Positions 3,431 through 61,233 of a stretch of 64,000 nt of DNA are shown one piece after another (position 1 is the first letter of the stretch; each line of letters starts with the position of its first letter). Source of the stretch: Candidatus Uhrbacteria bacterium (GTDB lineage Bacteria > Patescibacteriota > Patescibacteriia > JACQRZ01); contig JACQSC010000002.1 in the NCBI GenBank assembly GCA_016206155.1, positions 15,473 through 79,472 of the forward strand. The letters run 5' to 3'. Under the pieces are notes generated by a model, which ran no database searches, had not been told where the DNA came from, and worked only from the letters and a program-made list of their open reading frames with translations. The position numbers were made by a program, and so were the translations under genes.

Positions 3431-3674
3431 GAATTAAGAATCAAGAATTACGAATTAAGAATTACGAATGATTGACTTCGTGCCCTTGATTAACCATTCG
3501 TAATTTTATGAGAACAAACACATGACCTTCTAGCCATGCTCTAAGATCAGTAAACGATTGTATCTTATTCCTGCTTAATTCTTGATTCATAATTCTTAAT
3601 TCTTCATTCTTGAGATCAGTAAACGATTGTATCTTATTCCTGCTTAATTCTTGATTCATAATTCTTAATTCTTC
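3431..3674. mobile_element. MITE-like repeat, copy A', inverted relative to 1440..1597, with an internal ~65 bp tandem duplication (3545..3613 and 3614..3674)
   Basis: 'ccattcgtaattttatgagaacaaacacatgaccttctagccatgctc' is the exact reverse complement of the copy A core. The unit 'gatcagtaaacgattgtatcttattcctgcttaattcttgattcataattcttaattcttc' occurs twice in tandem. Confidence 0.6.
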
Positions 3675-3720
3675 GTACTATACAGAGTAGATAATAATAG
3701 AGCGCCAACGCCTCCTTAGA

Positions 3721-20269: not shown

Positions 20270-20346
20270 TGGCGGGCCGTACGGGATTCGAACCCGTGCT
20301 CTATCGCGTGACAGGCGATTGTTTTAACCGGCTAAACTAACGGCCC
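20270..20346 (-). tRNA. tRNA-Asp (anticodon GTC), CCA encoded
   Basis: Reverse complement 'GGGCCGTTAGTTTAGCCGGTTAAAACAATCGCCTGTCACGCGATAGAGCACGGGTTCGAATCCCGTACGGCCCGCCA': anticodon stem ATCGC/GCGAT, loop CTGTCAC. Confidence 0.85.
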
Positions 20347-20351
20347 ATGGA

Positions 20352-21350
20352 TTAAAATTTTTCAAATACTACTTTCTTTCGCGGGAGAAATAACTCACTT
20401 TTCATAGATGAATACATATATGTATAGAGACGCCTTGAATCATGAATAGAAAAACGTAAGTTAAAACCATCTCCTTCGGATATGCTTCCGCCCGCTACTA
20501 CTCTGTATTTTTTAAGGACCAAAAAGATTTGTTCGAGAATCTTTTTCCCGCCTGACGTGAATCCGGAAGCAAGTACTCGATTTTTCTTTCTACGTCCTTT
20601 CCTAAAATACTCATAGATAACGACATGACCACATCCATCAAAATAGCCTCGTAAAAAATGGCAGAAAAATTTATGGGGGACGGCAGGAAGCTGAACAATC
20701 AGGCTTTTGCGAACGATCATACCGAATGCGCTGAGATTCTTAAAAAGTTTTTTACTACCAATTTGCAAACGGTAACAGTCTTTCGCCCTTCTTGTTCTGT
20801 CGCGTTCGTGCGGTTTCACGCCGATCGAGTGATTGGAACCAAGGGCATCTCTAATTTTCTCAATGATTGCCCGATCGCATGAGGTAAATTCAATATATTT
20901 GCTTCCTCGCGGATTGACTGTCAAATTTCCGTCTGCGACAAAAAACCCGAGTACATACGCCATCTCCTCTGACCATGTTTCAAAGAACGATTGATTTACC
21001 TTCCATGGAAATTCCCTTTTAACCTTCGGCTTCGCGCGCGGCCCCTTACGTGGCCCAGTATTAAGGAGATTCAAGTTCGTAAACCGAGTACACGACTGGC
21101 TTGGAATATGAAGCTTATGAAACCATCTGGTTACGGTGCCTCGCGGCAGACCAACTTTTTTCCCAATCTCACTGTGTTTGAGATTTTCATCCCAGTGCCA
21201 GTAATAAAAAAGTTGATGAACTGGCGTTCTCCACTTTTCCTCAATGGCGGTCAGTCGAGGTGAGTGCACGATTTGCTGCATGGGAATCCCAAAAAAGATA
21301 GATACATTATACCACCTTTTTTTCTTTCCGCAATACCCATACCAATCCAA
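20352..21350 (-). CDS. free-standing LAGLIDADG homing endonuclease with two motifs and an N-terminal HTH region
   Basis: Motif 1 'YVLGFFVADGNL' and motif 2 'FLRGYFDGCGHV'. The gene lies immediately upstream of tRNA-Asp. Confidence 0.7.
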   Translation of the reverse strand: MDWYGYCGKKKRWYNVSIFFGIPMQQIVHSPRLTAIEEKWRTPVHQLFYYWHWDENLKHSEIGKKVGLPRGTVTRWFHKLHIPSQSCTRFTNLNLLNTGPRKGPRAKPKVKREFPWKVNQSFFETWSEEMAYVLGFFVADGNLTVNPRGSKYIEFTSCDRAIIEKIRDALGSNHSIGVKPHERDRTRRAKDCYRLQIGSKKLFKNLSAFGMIVRKSLIVQLPAVPHKFFCHFLRGYFDGCGHVVIYEYFRKGRRKKNRVLASGFTSGGKKILEQIFLVLKKYRVVAGGSISEGDGFNLRFSIHDSRRLYTYMYSSMKSELFLPRKKVVFEKF

Positions 21351-23598: not shown

Positions 23599-24975
23599 TT
23601 ACTTGAGAAGCCAGGCGGGGATGACCGTGATATCGGATGAAAGCGCGTGCGACATTCGCGAGATAACGGTCATTGGCGCGTTGTGCTTCTTGGCCACACG
23701 AGTCAGAAATGGTATATCGCGCATATCAATATGCTCGCGCCATTTCACTTCGATGTGCTGAAACGCGCGCGTATCGCGCATATCATTTGAGCAAAGAAAA
23801 TCAAACTCATGTGAGCGGACGCGATAGAAAGAGCAAAAGCGAAACTGTCTTCGCAGAAGAGAGAACACATAGTTCTCAACCATAAAACCCGTTCGCTGGC
23901 GAGAGATTTCAGAATCACGCCAATCCGTAAACAAGGAGAGAAAATTACTACTGCCGAGATAGAGTTTTTTCAGAAGACGGCGCGATTTGCGAAATGATTT
24001 GCTATAGTTATGGAGCGGGTACACTAAAAATGATTGTTCAAAATAGGAAAGATACTTTTTTACCGTTGCCGCATCGATCCCAATTTCGCGGGCGAGATTG
24101 GTGGGCTCTGAAAGCAAACCTGTTTCGGAAAGAATAACCGCAAAGAGAAACTTCAGCTCATCAACCTTCTCAACGCCAAAAATTCGCGGGATGTCATACT
24201 CCACTGTTTTTTTAAAAATTGATTCCTCAAGATATTTTTGCTTTGCTCCCGTCTCTTCGGTGCCAATGAGCTCGGGAAATTGCCCGAAACGAAGAAAATC
24301 ATCAAAGTGCGCAATGAGATCGTTTCCATACTGCGCAGTAATTCTCTCGTGTCGAAGAGCATGCGCGGCGCTATCGCCGATTGTTACCGCGCCACCCTGA
24401 TACGCATCAACAAGAATGGTGCTCACTCTCTTTAATGACAGATATTCCTCAAAGCTCAATACCGGTAAAAAAAACTCCTCGATACGTCCCGCGAGAGTTT
24501 CCGTTGTTTTTTTCTGCAAAAAAAGCGACGAAGACCCGCTGATAATAAATTTTATGTTCGGTTCCGTATCGTAATAACGCTTGAGAATGTGATGCCACTG
24601 TTTCGCGTATTGAATCTCATCCAAAAAAATAGTGAGCCGCGTATCTTTTGGCGCCTTATGTTCAAGATAAGCATCAATATAATCGGCAAGGGTTACGTCT
24701 TTAGGAAAAAGCACCTCATCAAACGAGAGAAAAAGGATTGCCTCAGCATCTACGTTTGAAAGTAGATTCTTGATGAGCTGTTTGAGCAGAACGGTTTTAC
24801 CAACACGGCGCAAGCCAACCAAGGATATTATCTGTCGTTTTTTGAGCGCGGGAACAAGAGAAAAATAGAGAGTCCGCTGATATTCAATATGTTCAATATC
24901 AAAAAAGAATTCATCGGGATTCTCCCAGTGCCTGTTCTGTCGAAAAATTTCCTTTAAAATAAAGTCTTTTTTCAT
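23599..24975 (-). CDS. AAA+ ATPase of the DUF4143 type (COG1373-like)
   Basis: Walker A 'VGLRRVGKT', Walker B 'IFLDEIQ', about 458 aa. Architecture of the archaeal/CPR-type 'AAA plus DUF4143' ATPases. Confidence 0.65.
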   Translation of the reverse strand: MKKDFILKEIFRQNRHWENPDEFFFDIEHIEYQRTLYFSLVPALKKRQIISLVGLRRVGKTVLLKQLIKNLLSNVDAEAILFLSFDEVLFPKDVTLADYIDAYLEHKAPKDTRLTIFLDEIQYAKQWHHILKRYYDTEPNIKFIISGSSSLFLQKKTTETLAGRIEEFFLPVLSFEEYLSLKRVSTILVDAYQGGAVTIGDSAAHALRHERITAQYGNDLIAHFDDFLRFGQFPELIGTEETGAKQKYLEESIFKKTVEYDIPRIFGVEKVDELKFLFAVILSETGLLSEPTNLAREIGIDAATVKKYLSYFEQSFLVYPLHNYSKSFRKSRRLLKKLYLGSSNFLSLFTDWRDSEISRQRTGFMVENYVFSLLRRQFRFCSFYRVRSHEFDFLCSNDMRDTRAFQHIEVKWREHIDMRDIPFLTRVAKKHNAPMTVISRMSHALSSDITVIPAWLLK

Positions 24976-25141
24976 GTAATTACATTTATAATGACCTCAA
25001 TCATCATAAATGTAACATTTATGATTGCTTATGTCAATAGAGATGTCATAATAATGCCCCATTTATCCACATTGACAATAAAAATGGTGTCTGGTTTAAT
25101 TTCTGAGGAAATTATACCTGCCACCTGACAGCATTATTGCT

Positions 25142-25206
25142 GTCATCCCGGTCCGACTGTGCCAAAGCGCTTCGTCGCGACGGCGAGCGGAGGCCGGGAT
25201 CCAGAC
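25142..25206. repeat. long intergenic copy of the palindromic repeat (gtcatcccgg...ccgggatccagac) with a 36 bp internal insert
   Basis: The ends match the 29 bp elements inside lgt and rfbD. The internal segment 'tccgactgtgccaaagcgcttcgtcgcgacggcgagcg' is absent from the short copies. Confidence 0.75.
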
Positions 25207-25372
25207 TCAACTATGTTGATTTCAAAAAATACGACAACTTGGTCAAGCTACGCATCATCTACGCGAGGAAATCCTCAAGAGTAGGTTTGTGCGTGCTTTG
25301 GAAAATTCGAAACATTCAGAAACCTGCCCTTGAGGCAGGTCTTTTCCTTATTCCTTGAGAAAGGAGTGAACA

Positions 25373-25519
25373 GTGACACTTTGGAACGGCGTTAAAGTTC
25401 TGGCATCAGAGTTCTACGGGTATGAGTTCCAGCTCGCGGAATACGGAATCAAGAAAATAGGTCCAATCACAGAGAGGGAAATCCTCAGCGCGTGGAAAGC
25501 GACACGCGAGACAACATAA
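25373..25519 (+). CDS. small hypothetical protein (48 aa, GTG start), not in the supplied ORF track
   Basis: RBS 'aaggagtgaaca' then GTG. Preceded by the hairpin 'cctgcccttgaggcaggtctttt'. Translation: VTLWNGVKVLASEFYGYEFQLAEYGIKKIGPITEREILSAWKATRETT. Confidence 0.3.
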   Translation: MTLWNGVKVLASEFYGYEFQLAEYGIKKIGPITEREILSAWKATRETT

Positions 25520-26229
25520 CACTCATGACTATCACACCTATCAAAACACGAATTTTTCTGGAAAACGAAAATCTCGAAAAATTTATTGATGAATACATTC
25601 CTGCCGTCCAAGAGAATACCATCATCGTCATCACTTCAAAAATCGTCGCTCTCTCTGAAGGTCGCACATACGATGACGATAGCGAGGAAGCGAGAGAAAC
25701 GCTTATTCGGCAAGAAAGCGAATGGATGTTAAAAACAAAATACGTATGGCTCACTCTCAAAGACGGCATGCTTGCGGCATCCGCTGGTATCGATGCATCA
25801 AACGCGAATGGCAAACTCATCCTCTTGCCAAAAAATAGTTTTCAGACAGCAAAACAAATACGCGACGCGTTGCGGAAAAAATACTCCCTCACCAACCTTG
25901 GCGTTCTTATTACCGATAGCCGCCTCCTCCCCTTGCGCGCGGGCGCGCTCGCGTACGCCATTGGGTATGCGGGATTTCGCGGTGTTCGCGACAATCGCGT
26001 AAAGCCCGACATCTTTGGCAGAGAATTATTATATTCCCAAACAGATGTTGCCGACGGGCTTGCGTCCTCCGCTGTTATTTGCATGGGCGAGGGCGCGGAA
26101 CAAATTCCGCTTTGCATCATCACCGACCCGCCGGTGGAGTGGACCGATGATCCGATTGATCCAAACGAACTACGCATTCCACCCGAAGACGACCTCTACC
26201 GCCCATTCTTTGAAAATTTACCTGATTGA
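25492..26229 (+). CDS. CofE-family protein (F420-0:gamma-glutamyl ligase-like)
   Basis: 'IVITSKIVALSEGR', an exact 'AGIDASN', 'VLITDS' and 'DIFGRELLYSQTDVADGLASSAVICMGEG' align with the CofE family. The likely start is MTITP at 25525. Confidence 0.75.
   Translation: MESDTRDNITLMTITPIKTRIFLENENLEKFIDEYIPAVQENTIIVITSKIVALSEGRTYDDDSEEARETLIRQESEWMLKTKYVWLTLKDGMLAASAGIDASNANGKLILLPKNSFQTAKQIRDALRKKYSLTNLGVLITDSRLLPLRAGALAYAIGYAGFRGVRDNRVKPDIFGRELLYSQTDVADGLASSAVICMGEGAEQIPLCIITDPPVEWTDDPIDPNELRIPPEDDLYRPFFENLPD
26185..26229. repeat. R1: the 3' terminal ~45 bp of the cofE-like gene, first of three direct copies
   Basis: 'cccgaagacgacctctaccgcccattctttgaaaatttacc'. Recurs at 26607..26655 and 27289..27335 at about 80% identity. 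Confidence 0.8.
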
Positions 26230-26253
26230 TTGAATGTACTTTGAAGGATGTCC

Positions 26254-26559
26254 TCAAGATAAATCTTTGGATCCTTGATCATATATGCGTATTTCTTCTT
26301 TAAGAATCTGCTCCCTCATTTGCGGTTTTATTGCATCATATTCTACAAGATCAACTTGTCTGCCAAGAGTTTCTTCGAGGAGCATCTTAAGGGTGATGAA
26401 ATCAAGGAGGGTTTTTGTCATTGGGAGTTCTACAAGAAGATCAACGTCACTTTCTGGCGTAAGCTGATCGCGCGCCGCAGAACCAAAAAGACCTGCACGA
26501 GTTGCCCCTGCCTGAATCATAAATGGAATGATCTTTTTTGTGATTTCTTCGTTACTCAT
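26254..26559 (-). CDS. nucleotidyltransferase-domain (MNT/pol-beta superfamily) protein, orphan
   Basis: 'GLFGSAARDQLTPESDVDLLVEL' is the minimal NTase motif hG[GS]...DhDh. No adjacent HEPN partner. Confidence 0.75.
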   Translation of the reverse strand: MSNEEITKKIIPFMIQAGATRAGLFGSAARDQLTPESDVDLLVELPMTKTLLDFITLKMLLEETLGRQVDLVEYDAIKPQMREQILKEEIRIYDQGSKDLS

Positions 26560-26606
26560 AATGTTATGATACCACAGAAAGCAGGCAGCGGTCAAACCCG
26601 ACCTAC

Positions 26607-26655
26607 CCCTGAAGGCGACCTCTACCGTCAGTTTTTTGAGAATATTCCCCTATGA
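26607..26655. repeat. R2: copy of the cofE-like 3' end repeat
   Basis: 'cctgaaggcgacctctaccgtcagttttttgagaatattcc', followed by the hairpin 'attcccctatgagggaat'. Confidence 0.8.
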
Positions 26656-26934
26656 GGGAATGCGCTGAAGAACCATATCATAGACACGCGAACGATGTGC
26701 AATGATAAGAACCCTCACTTCATCATTTGCAGCAATTCGATAAATAACTCTCCAATCACCTACTCTAAGCTTCCAATATCCTGCCAGCCATTTTCGAAGC
26801 GGCTTGCCATACTGATCTGGAGATGTAGTAAGACGGGTCTCGATCGCAGTTTTTACGCGCACTCGGATATCAGTAGGCAGGGATGGGATGTCGTCATTCT
26901 GCACACGTTCGTGCAACAAAACGTTATAGGCCAT
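26650..26934 (-). CDS. type II toxin, RelE/ParE family
   Basis: 'WKLRVGDWRVIYRIAANDEVRVLIIAHRSRVY' is the hallmark RelE/ParE C-terminal region. Start placed at MAYNV. Confidence 0.75.
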   Translation of the reverse strand: MAYNVLLHERVQNDDIPSLPTDIRVRVKTAIETRLTTSPDQYGKPLRKWLAGYWKLRVGDWRVIYRIAANDEVRVLIIAHRSRVYDMVLQRIPS

Positions 26935-27157
26935 ATTTCGCCCACACGTCCTTCTGGGGAATATATGCGCCGCCTTCAGCTTCCCGCTGTTTCGCAAGAT
27001 ATTCCCAGGTGATATCTTCTTCCAATTCTAACGCCTCTTCAAGAAGATGTGCCGCTTTTGTCGCGTAAGGAACGTCATCGCGCTTCGCAAGATAGCCGAT
27101 TGCTTTAGCGACCGGCTTTGAAAGCGATACGTTAACCCGTTTTTTTTGGGTGGGCAT
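26924..27157 (-). CDS. putative antitoxin partnered with the RelE/ParE toxin
   Basis: 77 aa. Overlaps the toxin start by 11 nt on the same strand. No family assigned. Confidence 0.5.
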   Translation of the reverse strand: MPTQKKRVNVSLSKPVAKAIGYLAKRDDVPYATKAAHLLEEALELEEDITWEYLAKQREAEGGAYIPQKDVWAKYGL

Positions 27158-27288
27158 AAAAGAGGTGATACACTTTAGTATCTCTATTGTATCAAAAGTG
27201 TCACACCTGTCAAGTTAAAATTGAGCCAGTGTCAACTGGAAGTAGAAATGTCACATTCCCGCGTTTTCTCCACATCGCCGACGTACGC

Positions 27289-27335
27289 TCTCGAAGATGG
27301 CCTCTACCGCCCGTTTTTTGAGAATATTCCGCAAC
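27289..27335. repeat. R3: third copy of the cofE-like 3' end repeat
   Basis: 'tcgaagatggcctctaccgcccgttttttgagaatattcc', followed by the strong hairpin 'cgacacaaaacag...ctgttttgtgttgtcg' at 27343..27388. Confidence 0.8.
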
Positions 27336-27396
27336 GACACAAAACAGTCCAATAATCTGAGCTGTTTTGTGTTGTCGCTTGAAGTTTAACAGTACA

Positions 27397-28446
27397 TCAT
27401 CTTCCAACCCCTTCGGGACCATATGGATTTTGACGACTGTTATATCTGCCTCCTCTTCCACCAGGCTGACTTCCTTGAGCTGGTGGTGTAATGTTAACAG
27501 GCTGCGGCTGCTGAGATGGCGGAGCTTTTGTGGTAAATTGATACGGTAGATTCGATTGATCATACAATTTTTGCGAATACGTCTTCGTCGCAGGATCGAA
27601 CCCCATGAATAAAAATTGATACGTCGTGTTTGGAGAACGATTTTTTATCACAACACGATGATTTTCTTGTGCACGATTACTGTCTGAGTATACAGATTCA
27701 CCATATTCACTCCCACCTCCTTTTAACCAAATCAGCCAACTAATAATCGGCTTGCTTGTCTGCCATGTAATTGTAGCGGTTGTGTCGGTTGTTTGCACCA
27801 CCTGCACATCACTGTATGACACGGAAGAGTTGTCTGGCACGGCAGTGGGGGTGGATGGCGCGCCATAAGCATCGTACTTATTACCAAAAGCATCGTACTT
27901 CTTATTCAAAAATTCTTCCGACGATTTTTTCGGGGGGAGTGTAGTAAATTGAAATATTGGGAGACTCAATTGTGCTTGAGCGGCTAACCCGCTATCCGGT
28001 GGTTTGCTACCATATGCATAAAGCGTAAATGTGTATTTTGTGTTTGGGGAAAGATTTTTTATCTCAACACTATGATCTTCTTGAAATGATGGATAACCGC
28101 TATCGTATTCCCAGTTCCCATAATTATTATCAGACTCTTTAAGCCACCGCAGAGAACCAGCAACCGGCGGAGTTGTTTTCCATTTGATAACCGCGGTTGT
28201 GTCGGTTTTTTGCAATTTCACATCATGGAAAATAACATCTAAAAGAGGTGCGCATGCTTTCGCTCCTGGTGATCCATCAAGATTCGGGACTTCCTCAAGA
28301 CAAAAATTTGTGACCTTTCCTCTCTCTCCCTGTATCACCTTTATTACACCTGCAGCTGCCGCAAGGGAAGCCGCGCCTACAGCAATGGCAACAAGCGTTT
28401 TTACATACGTACTGGTCCCGATGGACGTTTTTGTCTGTATGCTCAT
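27397..28446 (-). CDS. secreted or membrane-anchored protein with two internally duplicated fibronectin-III-like domains and a Pro/Gln/Gly-rich tail
   Basis: N-terminal signal/TM 'VKTLVAIAVGAASLAAAAG'. Duplicated blocks 'TTAVIKWKTTPP...KNLSPNTKYTFTLYAYG' and 'TTATITWQTSKP...KNRSPNTTYQFLFMGF'. Confidence 0.5.
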   Translation of the reverse strand: MSIQTKTSIGTSTYVKTLVAIAVGAASLAAAAGVIKVIQGERGKVTNFCLEEVPNLDGSPGAKACAPLLDVIFHDVKLQKTDTTAVIKWKTTPPVAGSLRWLKESDNNYGNWEYDSGYPSFQEDHSVEIKNLSPNTKYTFTLYAYGSKPPDSGLAAQAQLSLPIFQFTTLPPKKSSEEFLNKKYDAFGNKYDAYGAPSTPTAVPDNSSVSYSDVQVVQTTDTTATITWQTSKPIISWLIWLKGGGSEYGESVYSDSNRAQENHRVVIKNRSPNTTYQFLFMGFDPATKTYSQKLYDQSNLPYQFTTKAPPSQQPQPVNITPPAQGSQPGGRGGRYNSRQNPYGPEGVGR

Positions 28447-28618
28447 ATTAATATTACTTTATTTTTTATTGACATATTAATTAGCGTGTAGATGAATAGT
28501 AGATACTTTTTGGTATTGCACACGATAATACGTTCCTTACACATTCCATAATCATCCTTGACTATCTTCATCTCAAACAAAGGTTTTTGTGCTAATAAAT
28601 AAATTTTCATTCCCTTCT

Positions 28619-29659
28619 TCAGTGAATGTCTGCGTGTTCAATCCCAATCCATTCGGCAACTATTTCCTTTACATCTTCAACTCTTACGGTGACTAATTCC
28701 TCATCGCGATGTTCATATACTTTTTTTGCCGCGCCATGCAAAAGAGCAGCGGCATGTTCATGCGCTGAACCTCGTTCAACATTTAGTTTTGCCGCGGCCT
28801 CGTCCATAATGTCAATAGCCTTATCGGGCAATCGCCGACCTTTTATATATTCTTGAGAGAGCCGCACGGAGGCAACAATAGCCTCGTCGCTTATCTTCAC
28901 TTTGTGATAATCTTCATATTTCCCCTTAATTCCTCGTAAAATTTGTATTGATTCATCAACAGTCGGCTCATCGACGAGAACTGCTTGAAAACGACGATCC
29001 CAGCTCTCATCAGGCTGAATGTACGTCTCGTACTCAGCTTTTGTCGTCGCACCGATAAGCTGAAGATCTCCACGAGCAAGTGCGGGCTTAAGGATATCGG
29101 ATAAACTTATAGCGCCCTCAGTTCCTCGCGTCTGTGATATCGTATGAATTTCATCAATAAAAAGAATAATGGTACGCTTGCTTCTTTGGATTTCCTGTAC
29201 GATTCTTTTAATTCGCTGTTCAAACTCTCCCCGATATTTCGTTCCTGCAAGTAACTCGGAAACCTGTAGAAGAAGAACACGTTTGTTGCGTAAAATTTCC
29301 GGCACCTCAGCGCGCGCAATACGTTGTGCCAAACCTTCAACCACCGCGGTTTTCCCAACTCCGGGCTGTCCGACTAAAATAATATTATTTTTTGTCCTGC
29401 GTGATAAAATTTGTGCGGCGCGCATAATCTCATCCGATCGGCCAATAACTGGATCAATCGTGCCTGCGCGTGCAGCTATCGTAAGATCGGTCGCATAGAT
29501 ATCCAGCGTCGGCGTCTGTGTTATATAACCGCCAATTCCTCTCTTCTTGAGGTAATAACCAATACAAACAATAATGCCCAATATGACAAGCCACTTTATA
29601 AATTCATCTGTAAAAACAGGGAGGAACGTTTCCATACACATGGCGCGCGCCGCGCCCAT
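28619..29659 (-). CDS. membrane-anchored AAA+ ATPase corresponding to the Clp/Hsp100 D1 module only
   Basis: N-terminal TM helix, then 'IGRSDEIMRAAQILSRRTKNNIILVGQPGVGKTAVVEGLAQRI', 'TKYRGEFE' and '[10 protein letters not shown]', which are ClpA/B/C D1 signatures. No Clp N domain and no D2 module. Confidence 0.65.
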   Translation of the reverse strand: MGAARAMCMETFLPVFTDEFIKWLVILGIIVCIGYYLKKRGIGGYITQTPTLDIYATDLTIAARAGTIDPVIGRSDEIMRAAQILSRRTKNNIILVGQPGVGKTAVVEGLAQRIARAEVPEILRNKRVLLLQVSELLAGTKYRGEFEQRIKRIVQEIQRSKRTIILFIDEIHTISQTRGTEGAISLSDILKPALARGDLQLIGATTKAEYETYIQPDESWDRRFQAVLVDEPTVDESIQILRGIKGKYEDYHKVKISDEAIVASVRLSQEYIKGRRLPDKAIDIMDEAAAKLNVERGSAHEHAAALLHGAAKKVYEHRDEELVTVRVEDVKEIVAEWIGIEHADIH

Positions 29660-29751
29660 CTATTCTTTAATTACCACTTAAGTATATCCCCCCCCCCTCT
29701 GTGCACAAGTGGATAAAAATAATCAAAGGCTAAAACCGTCTTAGCCGTTGA

Positions 29752-29797
29752 AAAAGAGCTTCGCTCCGTCAGCTGGCGGAGCGAAGCTCTTTTTATT
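29752..29797. terminator. rho-independent (bidirectional) terminator downstream of groEL
   Basis: 15 bp perfect stem 'aagagcttcgctccg...cggagcgaagctctt' flanked by A and T runs. Confidence 0.75.
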
Positions 29798-29831
29798 TAA
29801 TGCCTAGAGCCTAATGCCTGATGCCTCTTTT

Positions 29832-31493
<1,662 letters not shown>

Positions 31494-44080: not shown

Positions 44081-45166
44081 TCAAAACGATGTACAAGACG
44101 CATACATAGGTAACACTTTTGATAGTTCAAGAGGTGGTTTGTAGTTCAGCGATTGATGAGGGCGTCTGAAGTTGTACTCAATCAGCCATTCAGTCAGATC
44201 TCTGTTAAAGATCAATGGGTCAGGATCGAACCCCTTCATCTCAATGAACTCTTCCTGCAGAGTTCTGTTGAATCGTTCATTGTTCGGATTGTCTTTTGGC
44301 GTGTGTACTCTGCTGTAGTATTGTTCAATGCCGAGTTCCAGGCACGCGGCCTTAAAGTATTTCTCAAACTCTGTTCCATTGTCGTGGCCGACTCGTGGAA
44401 TCTGTCCGTCAAGGAGGTAGTGGAGGCGCAGTAGAAAATCCTCACCATTCTTTGAGCTCTTGGACGTGTACATTCGCGCAAAGGCCACCTTGCCATACTT
44501 GTCGACAGCCGTGAAGATATATCGTTTCAATCCATGCCAGTATATCACGATCGTATCAAGGCAGATAATGTAGCCGGCTCTTTTCTGCCAGGGCAGGATG
44601 TTCTTCACAAGATCAATGGTCTTTTTCTTTTTCTGTGCTTTTCTTCGTTTTGCTTGTATTCTCTTGTTTTTTGAGGGTTTGTAGTAGAGCTTGAAGTCTG
44701 TAATAACGCACTGGATTTTCCATGAAGAAATTGTCTCTCCATAGGTTTGCTCATAGATTTCTTTGAGCTTCATTTTGCCATAGCGCATGTTGGACTTTCT
44801 GGGGGCTATGATACGTTCTAAAACGTCTGGGGCGATTGTACGGCCTCGTTTTTTCCTTGGAGAGCGTGATTTGTCCTCAAGGAGGTGGAGAGTGTAGAGA
44901 TTTCGCTCGTCAAAGAGTTTGAACCATTTGTAGAAGGTTTTTCCCGGGATGCCAAAGTGCCGGCAGGCTAATGAGGCGTTTCCCTCGTGTTCGTAGTACC
45001 AGATGATCCAGTCAAGGCGCTGTTTTGCTTTCTTTGAAACCTTGAGGATGTCTGCGACGCGTCTCCAGCGCTCATATTTGTCCAAAAGAGTATGGCGGTA
45101 GTAAGGGAAGTGCTTGAAAAGATCTTCAAGGCGCAATTTCTCTGGGGTATGGTATGCTGTTTGCAT
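44081..45166 (-). CDS. DDE transposase with an integrase (rve) core and an N-terminal HTH
   Basis: 'TAVDKYGKVAFARMYTSKSSKNG...GHDNGTEFEKY...YSRVHTPKDNPNNERFNRTLQEEF' is a DDE rve core. Single ORF of about 360 aa with an HTH N-terminus, as in IS481 members. Confidence 0.8.
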   Translation of the reverse strand: MQTAYHTPEKLRLEDLFKHFPYYRHTLLDKYERWRRVADILKVSKKAKQRLDWIIWYYEHEGNASLACRHFGIPGKTFYKWFKLFDERNLYTLHLLEDKSRSPRKKRGRTIAPDVLERIIAPRKSNMRYGKMKLKEIYEQTYGETISSWKIQCVITDFKLYYKPSKNKRIQAKRRKAQKKKKTIDLVKNILPWQKRAGYIICLDTIVIYWHGLKRYIFTAVDKYGKVAFARMYTSKSSKNGEDFLLRLHYLLDGQIPRVGHDNGTEFEKYFKAACLELGIEQYYSRVHTPKDNPNNERFNRTLQEEFIEMKGFDPDPLIFNRDLTEWLIEYNFRRPHQSLNYKPPLELSKVLPMYASCTSF

Positions 45167-45250
45167 AGATGAGATGCATTATGGTAACTTAGGCTCCCTT
45201 TATTGTACCACTTCGTGGCACATCAAGGGTGTTACCGATGTATCTCATCT
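44095..45250. mobile_element. IS481-family-like insertion sequence (~1.16 kb) with ~29 bp imperfect terminal inverted repeats
   Basis: Left end 'aagacgcatacataggtaacacttttgat' against the reverse complement of the right end 'aagatgagatacatcggtaacacccttgat', matching at 24 of 29. Single transposase ORF inside. Confidence 0.65.
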
Positions 45251-45331
45251 TTTGCAGTCTTTGTACAACGGTATTGCGTATTTCGAATGAGTTTGATATA
45301 TTTACATAGTACATAATCGAACTTCGATTCT

Positions 45332-46090
45332 ATGTTGATAAAAGAAAAAGAGAAAAGGCAGGCCATTTTACTAAGAAAGCGGGGTAAAAGTTATAGCGAA
45401 ATACAAAAAGTAGTTGGCGTCTCTATGTCAAGTATAAGTTTGTGGTTGCGAAATGTTCCGCTCAGTAAGAGGCAAAAAGATCGTTTATTTCGATTAAAAG
45501 TGCGGGGGGCAAAAAATGGGGGTGGCAAAAAAAAGCACCTTCAGAGATTGTATGAATCAAAAAAAATTATAAGGTCGGCCTGGGATGAATTTCCTAAAAA
45601 AATTTCGAGTCCACTATTTTTATTAGGTGTTTCCCTTTACTGGGCGGAGGGATCAAAAGCGGACGAAAAAATGTCTCTAAGCAATTCTGATCACCTTATG
45701 ATAGAATGCTTTATGAAGTGGTTAAGAGAGGTATGCGATGTTCCTGAAAAAAAGGTGCGCGTTCATCTTCATATTCACTCGCTCCACTCAAAAAAAGGTA
45801 TAGAAAAATATTGGTCCCGCATCACACACATTCCCTTAAATCAGTTTATAAAGACCTATGTAAAAACGACTTCACTGGGACACAGAAAAAACATACTCTA
45901 TAATGGTACTTGTACTGTCAATGTCCATGATGTAACATTGTATCGAAAAATGATTGGGTGGCAATTGGGCTTACTGGAATATTTGAACCTTATTTCCCCG
46001 TCAGAGAATGAAAAAAATTGTATCATCGACCGCATCATAAAAAAAAGAACAATGAAACAGATAGCGAGCACTCTAATTGTGCGCCCATAG
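45332..46090 (+). CDS. HTH-containing protein, possibly a degenerate LAGLIDADG-type homing endonuclease
   Basis: N-terminal HTH 'KSYSEIQKVVGVSMSSISLWLRNV'. 'LLGVSLYWAEGSKAD' loosely resembles a LAGLIDADG block. The stop overlaps the tRNA-Arg 5' end by 10 nt. Confidence 0.35.
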   Translation: MLIKEKEKRQAILLRKRGKSYSEIQKVVGVSMSSISLWLRNVPLSKRQKDRLFRLKVRGAKNGGGKKKHLQRLYESKKIIRSAWDEFPKKISSPLFLLGVSLYWAEGSKADEKMSLSNSDHLMIECFMKWLREVCDVPEKKVRVHLHIHSLHSKKGIEKYWSRITHIPLNQFIKTYVKTTSLGHRKNILYNGTCTVNVHDVTLYRKMIGWQLGLLEYLNLISPSENEKNCIIDRIIKKRTMKQIASTLIVRP

Positions 46091-46152
46091 CTCAAGGGAT
46101 AGAGCATTAGCCTTCTAAGCTAAGTATCTAGGTTCGAGTCCTAGTGGGCGCA
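46081..46152 (+). tRNA. tRNA-Arg (anticodon TCT)
   Basis: Acceptor GCGCCCA/TGGGCGC, anticodon stem TTAGC/GCTAA, loop CTTCTAA, T-loop GGTTCGAGTCC. Confidence 0.85.
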
Positions 46153-46167
46153 AATACTATAACGTCT

Positions 46168-46521
46168 ATGCAAACAACAGTCCTTGTCATCATCGCAATC
46201 GCAAGCGGCGCAATCGGGAATCTTCTCATTAAACTCTCTGCGAAAGATATTCCCCAGAGCATCACGCTTGAGGCCTTTGGTAAAATGGCGACAAACCCAA
46301 CACTCCTCCTTGGGATCCTTTTTCTTGCCGGAAGCTTTCCGGTATATGCGATGGTGCTTCAACGCCTTCCCTTGAGTTTCGGATTCCCGCTCGTGCAAAA
46401 CCTCGCATTCGTCACGCTCCTTGTCCTGTCGTATTTCTTCTTGCGCGAACAATTGACCTTCATCAATTTTCTTGGTATACTCCTTCTCATTGTCGGGCTT
46501 TTCTTGGCGGCGGCAAAGTAA
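46168..46521 (+). CDS. small multidrug-resistance (SMR/EamA-like, 4-TM) family membrane protein
   Basis: About 117 aa with four TM helices, resembling ArnE/ArnF-type SMR proteins. Confidence 0.5.
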   Translation: MQTTVLVIIAIASGAIGNLLIKLSAKDIPQSITLEAFGKMATNPTLLLGILFLAGSFPVYAMVLQRLPLSFGFPLVQNLAFVTLLVLSYFFLREQLTFINFLGILLLIVGLFLAAAK

Positions 46522-46528
46522 AAATTTA

Positions 46529-46604
46529 TGGTGGGCGTAGTGTAACGGTTCGCACACGACTCTGTGAAAGTCGGAGTGGGAGTTCAAGTCTCCTCGCTCA
46601 CCCC
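46529..46604 (+). tRNA. tRNA-His (anticodon GTG) with encoded G-1 and CCA
   Basis: Extra 5' G paired to discriminator C, anticodon stem CGACT/AGTCG, loop CTGTGAA. Confidence 0.85.
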
Positions 46605-47549
46605 ATGAAATCATCTCCCTCGCGGGAGGTGTTTTTATTTATGCCGTCAGGTATACTGCTTATATTATTATGCTTTTTTATGCTTTGGTTTCCCTTTGCA
46701 CTCTTTAGCGCCGTCATTCTTGCTTCGCGGCGCACCTACGAAAAGAATCTTACGAACTCCTTTGGAAACTTTTCCATGGGATTTATTGTACAGTCCTTTT
46801 CGCTATTGCCGACACTCGTACTCTTTTTCTTTTTCCCTATTCCTGATGACTTCCTGCATCTACCTTGGCAATTCTGGTGGCCGCTTTTGATTATCTGGTT
46901 TGTTCTCTATCCTATTCAAACGTACTTCTTGTACCGCGGGCTCCGTGAGGGAGAACTTTCTCAAACCGTTCCGATCATGGCTCTCATGCCCGTCTTTAAC
47001 TTGGCTTCATCGTTTCTGTTGCTTGGCGAGCGCCCCTCGCTTATGGGGATGGTCGGCATTGGGATCATTGTTCTGGGAACCTATCTTCTCCTTATGGAGG
47101 GCACACAAAAGGAACACGGAAAGCGCTACAATAAAGCGGTGATGTATACAATCATCGCGACATTCTGCGTTGCAATAGGATCGACGCTTGATAAAATTTC
47201 AATCAATGTATCAACGCCGGTCTTTTACAGTTTTATGAATACGCTTGGTGCGTCGGTTGTCTTTCTTGTTCTGATGAATATCTATCGTCAGCGCGATGAT
47301 ATCCCAAAGATGCTTCAACGATTCTGGCCATTTACGATCCTTGGCATCTTTCAGGCGCTTCTCTATACGGCAAAAATGCTCGCCTTCTCCTTCGGACCAA
47401 CTTCCTATGTTGTTGCGGTTCTCTCGTCAAGCTTTCTTTTTGCCGCGCTCTTTGGTATCATCTTTTTGAAAGAGAAATGCACAATACGCAAAATGTCATC
47501 CTTTGGACTATTTGTTTTTGGAATTATTTTGATTACGGTCACCCGTTAA
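46605..47549 (+). CDS. EamA/DMT-superfamily 10-TM transporter
   Basis: Two repeated 5-TM halves, drug/metabolite transporter-like. The start may be the internal Met at 46641. Confidence 0.55.
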   Translation: MKSSPSREVFLFMPSGILLILLCFFMLWFPFALFSAVILASRRTYEKNLTNSFGNFSMGFIVQSFSLLPTLVLFFFFPIPDDFLHLPWQFWWPLLIIWFVLYPIQTYFLYRGLREGELSQTVPIMALMPVFNLASSFLLLGERPSLMGMVGIGIIVLGTYLLLMEGTQKEHGKRYNKAVMYTIIATFCVAIGSTLDKISINVSTPVFYSFMNTLGASVVFLVLMNIYRQRDDIPKMLQRFWPFTILGIFQALLYTAKMLAFSFGPTSYVVAVLSSSFLFAALFGIIFLKEKCTIRKMSSFGLFVFGIILITVTR

Positions 47550-59752: not shown

Positions 59753-59791
59753 CAGAGCCATATTTTTCGATATACTTTCTTTCATCATTAT

Positions 59792-59863
59792 GGCCCTATC
59801 GTCTAGTGGTTAGGACGACAGGTTTTCATCCTGTAAACCGGAGTTCGATTCTCCGTGGGGCTA
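59792..59863 (+). tRNA. tRNA-Glu (anticodon TTC)
   Basis: D-loop 'TCGTCTAGTGGTTAGGACG', anticodon stem ACAGG/CCTGT, loop TTTTCAT, T-loop GGAGTTCGATTCTCC. Confidence 0.8.
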
Positions 59864-61233
59864 AATAATGTATACTTTGCGAACTCCCGACTCTCACCAA
59901 GAGTCGGGAGTTCGCTTTTGAGGGGGCAATCGGTTTTTCGGTCGGACAAAACACCAACAGAATTTTTATCGTCGGGGGCAATCGTTAAATCCTTGTGTAA
60001 CGAAAAGGAAATAATAATTTGGTCGGGGGCATACTCAATTTTTTCCAAACATTTTTTCGCAAAGAAATTTCTCTCGATGCCTTTGAGCGAGCGGAGGGTG
60101 ATGGCGAAAAATTTCAAGGTCGCGGCGATACTCTCAGCCGAAATCTGGGAAATCGAAGAGTGCTCGCCTGAGAGTTCGATTCCCTGAGGGTGCCCCGTCG
60201 AACCGTCATTATTCAAGCGAAAAACGAGATTTTCTAGATACGTCTTATCTACAGTCAGACGCTCGAGATCCTCCAGACAAAAATTTTCAAGGCGGTCGGC
60301 AGAAACTTGTTTTACCGAACACGCACCCCAATTCTGCTTTGATATCCTTGTACAACGATAGTAGTAATAGCGCCTCATTTTGCCTTCATGCCACTTGTTC
60401 GTAAAACAAGCTGTCATCGTCGAATTGCAATTTTTGCATTTAACCAGACCGCCGAACAGAAAGTTTTTGTAGAGCTTGAATTTTTTCGTCTTGGACTTGT
60501 GTATTTTTTGAGCAAGTTCAAAGAGTTCAAGAGATATGAGCGGTTCGTGGATGCCGTAGTAATACACCCCTCTATGAAATACTTTCCCGGCATAGACGCG
60601 GTTTCTAAGAATTTTGCTGACATACGTACTCGCGAAATGGTTTCCGCGCTTGTTTCGTGTGTCATTTTCTCTTAACGCCCTATGGACGGCGGCCACAGAC
60701 TGCGTTTCCAGGTATATATCAAACATTAGCTTTATGGCATCACGCTCTTTTGGATGCGGGACCAGCTTCTTGTCTTGACGAATGTATCCATACGGCGTAG
60801 CCCCGCCATTACACATTCCTTTCTTCGCGCGTTCAAGTGCCTTGTCTCGCGTGCGTTCGCTCGTGAGTTCGCGTTCAAATTGCGAGAATGTGAGCATGAT
60901 ATTCCTCAACAGTCTGCCGGCGGGAGTAGACGTATCGAATCGTTCGGTGATGGAGATAAAGTCAAGATTTGCGCGCTCAAAAAATTCTATGAGCTGGTAA
61001 AAATCCTTCGGCGAACGTGTGAGCCGATCAATCTTGTACACGAGGACAACATCGATTTTTTCTTTCTTTGCGTCAGCCAACAATTGCGTGAGGGCGGGCC
61101 GATCAACAGTTGCTCCTGAGTACCCTGCGTCGGAATAGACCTTGCACACCTGCCAATCAGATTGACTCTCAATGAATGAACGGATCTTTAGTTCTTGCGC
61201 TTCACAGGACGAAAACTCCTTCTCTGCCTGCAA
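59803..61233 (-). CDS. large serine recombinase (resolvase/invertase catalytic domain, recombinase domain and zinc ribbon)
   Basis: N-terminal 'EFSSCEAQ...VYKIDRLTRS', recombinase-domain 'GGATPYGYIRQDKKLV', zinc-ribbon Cys pairs 'CKNCNS...YYYRC'. The 3' end of the ORF overlaps tRNA-Glu on the opposite strand. Confidence 0.8.
   Translation of the reverse strand: MQAEKEFSSCEAQELKIRSFIESQSDWQVCKVYSDAGYSGATVDRPALTQLLADAKKEKIDVVLVYKIDRLTRSPKDFYQLIEFFERANLDFISITERFDTSTPAGRLLRNIMLTFSQFERELTSERTRDKALERAKKGMCNGGATPYGYIRQDKKLVPHPKERDAIKLMFDIYLETQSVAAVHRALRENDTRNKRGNHFASTYVSKILRNRVYAGKVFHRGVYYYGIHEPLISLELFELAQKIHKSKTKKFKLYKNFLFGGLVKCKNCNSTMTACFTNKWHEGKMRRYYYYRCTRISKQNWGACSVKQVSADRLENFCLEDLERLTVDKTYLENLVFRLNNDGSTGHPQGIELSGEHSSISQISAESIAATLKFFAITLRSLKGIERNFFAKKCLEKIEYAPDQIIISFSLHKDLTIAPDDKNSVGVLSDRKTDCPLKSELPTLGESREFAKYTLFSPTENRTPVYRMKTCRPNH
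59879..59919 (+). terminator. rho-independent terminator after tRNA-Glu
   Basis: 16 bp perfect stem 'gcgaactcccgactct cacca agagtcgggagttcgc' followed by 'ttttg'. Confidence 0.8.

Follow-up and report, generated by a model that had tools for sequence, protein, structure and literature searches.

How does the 3' end of a single housekeeping gene come to stand three times in a row, with toxin-antitoxin (TA) genes in between? The question is raised by a stretch of 64,000 nt of a Candidatus Uhrbacteria bacterium (contig JACQSC010000002.1, assembly GCA_016206155.1), hereafter the window, in which the end of a cofE-like gamma-glutamyl ligase gene recurs twice on the way from that gene to groEL. We consider it probable that TA cassettes, brought in on DNA of related strains, were inserted serially at the cofE end and that each insertion replaced the end of the gene. 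The serial, additive and end-replacing character of these insertions at cofE is well supported by comparison with the corresponding loci of relatives (designated by L numbers), a sample of about 12 distinct loci with three stacking events. What is unusual here is the position of the cassettes, whose stop codon is welded to the end of cofE, not the proteins that they encode.

The repeated end of cofE

The target gene (25525..26229, + strand) encodes a protein of 234 aa with an F420_ligase domain (PF01996, E 8.5e-34), 100% identical to a Candidatus Uhrbacteria protein that is named coenzyme F420-0:L-glutamate ligase at NCBI and with homologs that number in the thousands. Among close homologs the C-terminal motif P-E-[DE]-D-[LVI]-Y-R-P-F-F-E-N-[LI]-P is almost invariant, and in the homologs in which this motif could be located the D at motif position 3, the Y, the P at position 7 and the second F show no variation (108/108). 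Repeat finding and MAFFT independently yield three direct, in-frame copies of this end. Copy A (26182..26229, + strand; PEDDLYRPFFENLPD and stop) is the current functional end of cofE and agrees with the family consensus wherever this is invariant; its final 7 nt, 26223-26229, are shared with the end of a toxin gene remnant described below. Copy B (26608..26655, + strand; PEGDLYRQFFENIPL and stop) is a displaced end that overlaps by 6 nt the stop codon side of a ParE toxin gene. Copy C (27290..27337, + strand; LEDGLYRPFFENIPQR...), the oldest displaced end, has an ORF tail with its stop at 27355. The recurrence of the cofE end that the initial annotation reported is thus real, but the identity is a little lower than the about 80% given there, amounting to 73% for A-B, 75% for A-C and 79% for B-C over 48 nt and to 76-81% over a 42-nt core, and the coordinates were off by 1-2 nt. 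The copies are collinear and in frame over 39-48 nt, without indels, and only the 9 nt of the block CCTCTACCG are the same in every copy. When a degenerate pattern of 29 nt is searched with at most 3 mismatches, these three sites alone are found in the 64 kb, and none in 100 dinucleotide shuffles.

The differences between the copies fall mainly on third codon positions, in 6/9 cases for A-B, 6/8 for A-C and 6/9 for the corresponding pair A'-B' of locus L010, which argues that the copies diverged as coding sequence in separate lineages and not as decaying duplicates. Copy B has G and Q at positions where the 108 homologs never have them, and copy C has G in place of the invariant D; these residues show that selection on B and C has relaxed, and the decay of both relics has begun since their displacement. 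The sequence of B and C identifies them as ends that cofE used before they were displaced. Copy C is identical at 36/39 positions to the functional end of L006, the closest relative with an empty site, and the junction of B with ParE is homologous to the junction of the functional cofE end with ParE in L007/L008/L009. Neither flank to the left of B and C has significant similarity to the body of cofE; the left flank of B is a promoter common to cassettes in other contexts. A motif CGAC(C/G)TAC that lies 12-14 nt upstream of both B and C is not significant and is absent in L027.

Segments of 60 nt that hold the repeats fold at -0.5, -6.6 and -1.9 kcal/mol, those of A and C no better than shuffles, and no structure is common to the three. 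Of the hairpins that had been assigned to every copy, the one after C holds up, a strong hairpin at 27331..27378 with a stem of 15-17 bp and 17-nt arms that are 88% complementary; originally it probably served as a terminator in both directions, for cofE (when C was its end) and for the fn3 gene beyond it. Downstream of B there is only a 6-bp stem (ATTCCC/GGGAAT), and downstream of A nothing better than shuffled sequence (z = +0.19). These downstream structures are not homologous to one another. An Rfam search of the region gave sub-threshold hairpin matches only, and no tRNA lies inside the island between cofE and groEL.

TA cassettes between cofE and groEL

The TA operons of this island each consist of promoter, antitoxin and toxin, and all are antisense to cofE. 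In the first interval of the window the initial annotation saw only an orphan minimal nucleotidyltransferase (MNT) gene. An intact MNT antitoxin gene is indeed present (26254..26559, - strand, 101 aa; PF18765/PF01909, Polbeta/NTP_transf_2), but it is accompanied by a pseudogene remnant of 60 nt of the HEPN toxin HepT (26223..26282, - strand), recognised by alignment with L010. In this remnant the first ~14 codons (MIKDPKIYLEDILQ) are joined out of frame to the last ~8 (KYIQSIR and stop), ~270 bp having been deleted; at the same position L010 has an intact HepT of 109 aa (PF01934, E 2e-30), which pairs with an MNT that is 87% identical in amino acids to that of the window. Intact HepT-MNT pairs, in which the MNT gene is followed by an overlapping HepT gene, are found in L010, L008, L024 and L025, whereas the HepT of the window is only the out-of-frame remnant. 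On the alignment, the supposed orphan is the surviving antitoxin of a HepT-MNT pair that recently suffered a HepT deletion. The promoter-like site of the operon (26566..26595, - strand), TTGACC-18-TATCAT with a TG, agrees with a sigma-70-like promoter at 10 of 12 positions, and its -35 box is the right edge of the cassette. Homology with HepT-MNT cassettes in other contexts (L008, L024) ends directly after GGTCAA, that is, after the -35 box; the units are bare operons.

The second interval holds a RelE/ParE toxin and its antitoxin, as had been noted. The ParE/RelE-family toxin gene (26650..26934, - strand) encodes 94 aa (PF05016, E 2e-9), and the preceding gene for a CopG-like RHH antitoxin of 77 aa (26924..27157, - strand) overlaps its start by 11 nt. 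The RHH match is weak (PF07878, RHH_5, E 7e-4, below the gathering score); the antitoxin is conserved with L007/L008/L010. At 27163..27213 (- strand) the promoter of the pair (TTGACA-16-TACAAT, 11 of 12) is overlapped by a palindromic operator, the inverted repeat 27163-27176 / 27195-27208, and forms the right edge of the conserved cassette, the conservation with L007/L008 ending at ...GTCAAG. With a ParE/RelE-fold toxin, a preceding and overlapping antitoxin and an operator-bearing promoter, the pair has the features of a type II TA system. Between this cassette and copy C lies a spacer of 74 nt (27216..27289) that has no cofE-like similarity and no significant match in any fetched locus.

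Loci with zero, one and two inserts are all found among the relatives. In the empty sites L006 (86% aa identity) and L012, the cofE stop, one terminator hairpin and the groEL stop follow each other within 50-64 bp in total, the hairpin, orthologous to that of groEL, being the only intergenic element, and L001 is near-empty, with a single tiny ORF between cofE and groEL. One cassette abuts cofE in L007, L008/L009 and L016 (ParE/antitoxin) and in L022 (DUF2283/DUF4258); a second copy of the cofE end was looked for in L007, L008, L016 and L022 and not found, and the primary insertion points vary by a few codons around the cofE stop. Two cassettes are stacked in the window and in two relatives. 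L010 has the order cofE, HepT-MNT, a second cofE end (EEDVYRPFFENIPL and stop), and a truncated ParE with its antitoxin, and its relic B' is an intact EEDV allele, known from other lineages, beside the EDDL of the functional end. In L027 the order is cofE, a truncated HepT with MNT, a hairpin, a decayed cofE end, DUF2283 and DUF4258. This decayed end scores 25/39 against reference ends, a score reached by 0/300 shuffles, and its junction with DUF2283 is homologous to, and aligned in continuity with, the junction of the functional cofE end and DUF2283 in L022. The left edges of the relics (window B/L010 B', window C, L027) lie ~40-54 nt before the cofE stop. No further multi-copy loci were obtained from a scan of JGI metagenomes, which gave 6 loci, all single-copy, or from a GTDB scan, which gave only 5 loci. 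With lengths from 0.05 to ~5.8 kb, the islands between cofE and groEL hold predominantly TA genes (PIN, PhdYeFM, HepT-MNT, ParE, DUF4258/DUF2283); the TA-type cargo first noticed in the two slots of the window recurs in every slot examined. Toxins decay repeatedly, HepT being deleted in the window, ParE truncated to 67 aa in L010 and HepT truncated to 51 aa in L027. At the level of sequence, the few dozen bases between the convergent cofE and groEL are thereby shown to be a landing pad for compact TA operons in this Uhrbacteria clade.

Insertion has also left its mark on the annotation of cofE itself. Five cofE homologs (P0003, P0008, P0015, P0024, P0026) have C-terminal extensions of 15-27 aa (...FFENLxMREDxx...), and these read as another frame of the DNA that directly follows copy B, where the strand is antisense to the ParE 3' end. 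It followed that ParE cassettes should abut cofE elsewhere, and the fetched contexts confirmed it. The extended C-termini are read-through junction artefacts of cassette insertion and not domain extensions.

Comparison of the window with L010 bears on the age of the first cassette. The body of cofE is 66.7% identical in nucleotides and the MNT gene 85.0%; the last 122 nt of the cassette, comprising the 5' end of MNT and the promoter, have 3 differences (97.5% identity), whereas the following 122 nt, relic B and ParE, have 32 (Fisher p = 6e-8). As both flanks of the cassette are only ~67-74% identical, the HepT-MNT block is younger than either. Members of this family front two different residents, ParE in the window/L010 and DUF2283/DUF4258 in L027, and adjoin groEL in L008 and L024. 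From these comparisons the HepT-MNT cassette looks mobile. The identity of A and A' proved uninformative for placing the left boundary of the cassette, as the cofE end is better conserved than the body of the gene in all pairs of lineages (72-95% versus 61-80%).

A similar picture is found at the opposite border. In the window the island (26230-29831), which is lower in GC than its flanks, ends at the terminator hairpin of groEL (AAAAAGAGCTTCGC...GCGAAGCTCTTTTT; 29752..29795), which is followed by groEL (29832..31481, - strand). The hairpin (AAAAGAGCTTCGC...GCGAAGCTCTTTTT) is triplicated in L008 (6020-6059, 7488-7527, 8181-8220) and duplicated in L024 (1653-1689, 2359-2396), and these copies bracket TA cassettes, PIN-DUF3892-Phd and HepT-MNT. 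That it is a generic genome-wide repeat was rejected, given its single copy in the 64 kb of the window. The stems of the copies in L008/L024 differ by compensatory changes, so that foreign functional alleles are present there too. The duplicated groEL terminators mirror the cofE-end repeats at the other border of the island.

How the stacks may have grown

The compared loci show the following course of events. A primary insertion welds the stop codon of the toxin gene onto the last codons of cofE without duplicating anything, and the welded cassette thereafter moves with its cofE end. When such a block enters an occupied site, the end that it brings takes over as the working end of cofE, and the resident end shifts downstream, to persist as a fossil of ~45 nt attached to the older cassette. 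In the window, copy B with ParE/antitoxin first displaced C, and copy A with HepT-MNT then displaced B; the later deletion of HepT left the harmless MNT antitoxin behind. In the mechanism that we favour, the blocks would come from related-strain DNA, recombination would be anchored in the cofE end, where the gene is best conserved, and the other junction would be illegitimate, arising by homology-facilitated illegitimate recombination (HFIR) or by template switch. This specific enzymology, with recombination anchored in the cofE end and a second junction that is illegitimate or switched, is tentative, and we would not quite give it an even chance. Recombinants that replace a resident TA cassette would die by post-segregational killing, so only additive products would survive, and stacks would result. 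No dedicated recombinase would be required, and one might still act in trans.

In HFIR one homologous anchor, here cofE with its conserved end, is combined with one non-homologous join, and the imported alleles that are its signature are found at this locus. The right ends of the imported segments vary, lying at the -35 box, at +74 nt or at about +110 nt including the hairpin. In its classical form HFIR usually deletes recipient DNA and the non-homologous join usually falls at microhomology; here, in contrast, ~45 nt are duplicated, and microhomology at the junctions was tested and is not significant.

Several points weigh against the explanation that we favour. Purely illegitimate joins should scatter, yet three independent relics start within the cluster at -40 to -54, which HFIR does not foresee and which speaks most strongly for an event directed by sequence, perhaps by an enzyme. 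The sample is small, with three stacking events among the ~12 distinct loci, and neither a donor molecule, nor a circle, nor junction microhomology is demonstrated among the data examined. The left boundary of the segment of high identity between the window and L010 is inseparable from the intrinsic conservation of the cofE end, and its sharp right boundary could be that of a later gene-conversion tract ending where homology ends.

A serious alternative, though a distinctly less probable one, is that an integrase drove tandem accretion at the cofE 3' end, either by elements since decayed to integrase-less remnants resembling cis-mobilizable elements (CIMEs) or by mobilisation of mini-cassettes in trans. 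It would account for direct repeats of the target gene end at every cassette boundary, for the empty sites L006 and L012, for a cassette younger than both its flanks and, above all, for the near-equal coordinates (-40 to -54) at which the three relics begin; it has precedents in CIMEs and integrative and conjugative elements at gene 3' ends (PMC5704250) and in tandem ssrA islands (PMC3146451), and a large serine recombinase is encoded elsewhere in the window (59803-61233). Yet neither the island of the window with its neighbourhood nor the ~12 related islands yielded a recombinase. A motif screen with Pfam analysis of the candidates gave none within 17 kb of the island in the window, in agreement with the initial annotation, and none was called in the islands of L007, L008, L010, L014, L016, L022, L024 and L027. 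Arm-type binding sites would find no space in cassettes that are minimal operons of 0.4-0.7 kb, and only the 9 nt of CCTCTACCG are identical in all three copies. A phage or plasmid carrier of the cofE end was rejected on the strength of 0 matches of the motif on the viral contigs of IMG/VR. Genomes with a single cassette lack a second attachment (att) copy, their primary insertion points differ by a few codons, and on the groEL side it is another sequence, the terminator of that gene, that is duplicated round cassettes, which argues against one sequence-specific att site. Of the serial site-specific integration proposed at the outset, the serial, end-replacing part is borne out and the site-specificity is not. 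A link to dif or the terminus, as in integrative mobile elements exploiting Xer (IMEX), was rejected, the cumulative GC skew being monotonic across the locus.

More speculative, and in our judgement unlikely, is a general form of the idea in which the TA operons of these CPR bacteria would be miniature end-replacement cassettes, a class of their own. The conserved last ~45 nt of a housekeeping gene would then be a portable site for attachment or homology, fused to a toxin gene, mobility would be provided by an unrecognised trans recombinase or by template switch without a recombinase, addiction would force additive exchange and let the arrays grow, with a legible series of fossil gene ends as the outcome, and the groEL terminators would reflect the same process.

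That the repeats were duplicated in situ and diverged since, whether as a long target-site duplication, by replication slippage or as remnants of tandem cofE paralogs, is very improbable. The repeats are direct and of like length (~45 nt), and the duplicated groEL terminators of L008/L024 could be target duplications as well; however, divergence is concentrated at synonymous sites, and neutral decay of a once identical duplicate would not yield the complete natural allele of L010 B' (EEDV versus EDDL). Neither B nor C is preceded by cofE body, B having on its left the MNT promoter that is shared with cassettes in other contexts, and tandem cofE genes occur in no relative examined, so that the origin from tandem paralogs is ruled out.

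The integron reading, in which the locus would be an array of attC sites without its integrase (a CALIN) and the repeats would be attC sites of promoterless cassettes, moved as folded single strands by an IntI-type integrase, is effectively refuted. It would fit short single-operon cassettes of one orientation, parted by a repeated element, and a TA cargo typical of chromosomal integron cassettes, among which such cargo is common. An attC site, though, is built as an imperfect inverted repeat (R''-L''...L'-R'), through which its single strand folds into a hairpin, and integron cassettes are generally promoterless and expressed from Pc. The repeat of the window has neither internal symmetry nor folding (-0.5 to -6.6 kcal/mol) nor R''/R' boxes; it consists of coding sequence from the adjacent gene, and its substitutions follow a coding-type pattern. 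A strong sigma-70-like promoter stands in front of both cassettes (11 of 12 matches in one, 10 of 12 in the other), and the motif screen with Pfam of candidates found no integron or tyrosine integrase, IntI or attI in the 64-kb window. Chance similarity or an artefact of Phe/Glu codons, for which nothing speaks beyond the T-rich Phe codons of the motif, can be dismissed, given three sites against none in 100 shuffles, collinearity in frame and without indels over 39-48 nt, the identical CCTCTACCG block and the orthologous relics in L010 and L027.

Surroundings, known systems and significance

The remainder of the island in the window consists of a gene for an fn3-repeat protein (27397..28446, - strand) and one for a ClpA/B-like AAA protein (28619..29659, - strand), both assigned by Pfam and without a blastn match in the locus of any fetched relative. 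GC here is 0.37-0.46, compared with 0.51-0.58 in the flanks. An internal repeat of 57 nt (27613-27669 / 28027-28083, 81% identity) in the former, which resembles a surface protein of the fn3/purple-acid-phosphatase-N type, is explained by two tandem fn3-type domains. The AAA gene has, ~30 nt before its start, a run of ten C (29688-29697; G10 on the coding strand), which could be prone to slippage and phase-variable, or else sensitive to assembly.

Upstream of cofE, pterin/folate genes (PTPS, DHFR/RibD_C, Pterin_bind DHPS, TENA) precede the gene in L006, L010, L012, L014, L015, L022 and L023, a hint that in these bacteria, which lack F420, the so-called F420 ligase is a gamma-glutamyl ligase connected with folate or pterin. 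The immediate upstream neighbour in the window is an ORF of 48 aa and not a pterin/folate gene, and an AAA_14/DUF4143 ATPase gene lies upstream of cofE in the window (23599-25519 region) and in L015. Further upstream, a LAGLIDADG_3 protein (20352-21350) directly adjoins tRNA-Asp (20270-20346), upstream of lgt, and L010:1-276 has a faint LAGLIDADG_3 gene beside lgt, which suggests that a homing-endonuclease-like gene is conserved there in both. An intergenic region at 3544-3679 holds two tandem units of 69 nt with 97% identity, rich in TAATTC/TGATTC motifs, and a third copy (61%) is weakly discernible 2 kb upstream (1537-1603).

The only recombinases that the window encodes lie in two regions beyond groEL. 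The large serine recombinase (Resolvase + Recombinase + Zn_ribbon_recom, 476 aa; 59803-61233, - strand), 33 kb off the island, is encoded by a gene that ends in or beside tRNA-Glu (59791-59864, + strand), and the spot may be the edge of an integrated element. An rve-family DDE transposase is encoded at 44081-45166, 18 kb from the island, in a patch of low GC (0.43-0.44; 44081-46614) with an HTH_23 protein (45332-46090), tRNA-Arg (46080-46153) and tRNA-His (46531-46605), probably an insertion sequence or mobile region.

Among known systems the closest in layout are those with tandem accretion at a gene end. ICESt1/ICESt3 at fda are examples of integrative elements and CIMEs that accumulate in tandem behind a housekeeping gene, at its 3' end (PMC5704250). 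As there, the array lies directly behind a conserved gene, its units lack an integrase and are bounded by repeats of the gene 3' end, the newest unit is nearest the gene, and relatives have empty sites. Unlike CIMEs, which are decayed islands of many kilobases, the units described here are single TA operons of 0.4-0.7 kb; the repeats, of ~45 nt and 73-81% identity, lack a long identical core, a cognate integrase is seen in none of ~12 islands, and single-unit genomes have no attR-like copy. The ssrA islands of Dehalococcoides are tandem, with a 20-bp repeat of the ssrA end, an integration module with the serine recombinase DsiB and a mapped insertion point, and some units without integration genes are proposed to be cis-mobilizable (PMC3146451). 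Several tandem units downstream of one essential gene, each ending in a repeat of the gene 3' end, are common to both; here, however, there is no integration module, and the target end codes for protein and has to remain in frame.

In cargo the locus resembles integron arrays and CALINs, with small, mostly single-function cassettes of one orientation at one locus and an abundance of TA modules, which may stabilise the array, but its repeat forms no attC hairpin, every cassette brings a promoter of its own, and IntI/attI are lacking. The operons themselves are like ParDE-like and HepT-MNT type II TA systems in antitoxin-first order, gene overlap and an autoregulatory palindromic operator with promoter, the HepT toxin deleted in the window setting it apart from the usual HepT-MNT pair. 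The locus thus has the layout of tandem 3'-end accretion and the cargo and scale of integron cassettes, and lacks the defining features of both, there being no attC, no integrase and no obligatory attR. Topical literature searches gave no account of TA cassettes stacked together with displaced ends of protein-coding genes in bacteria of the Candidate Phyla Radiation (CPR), which is weak evidence of absence.

What, then, does the locus tell about these organisms? It gives a sequence-level picture of how TA arrays grow in streamlined genomes that are nearly without recognisable mobile-element machinery, and the displaced gene ends are a stratigraphic record of the order of insertion. Orphan antitoxins and odd C-terminal extensions of cofE are by-products of the junctions and not novel protein features. 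Addiction may bias recombination towards stacking over replacement, and a clustering of relic starts that persisted when more loci are surveyed would be a sign that Patescibacteria have a site-directed recombination activity not yet recognised. The locus is an example of selfish cassettes accumulating at one hotspot in an ultra-small bacterium of the CPR.

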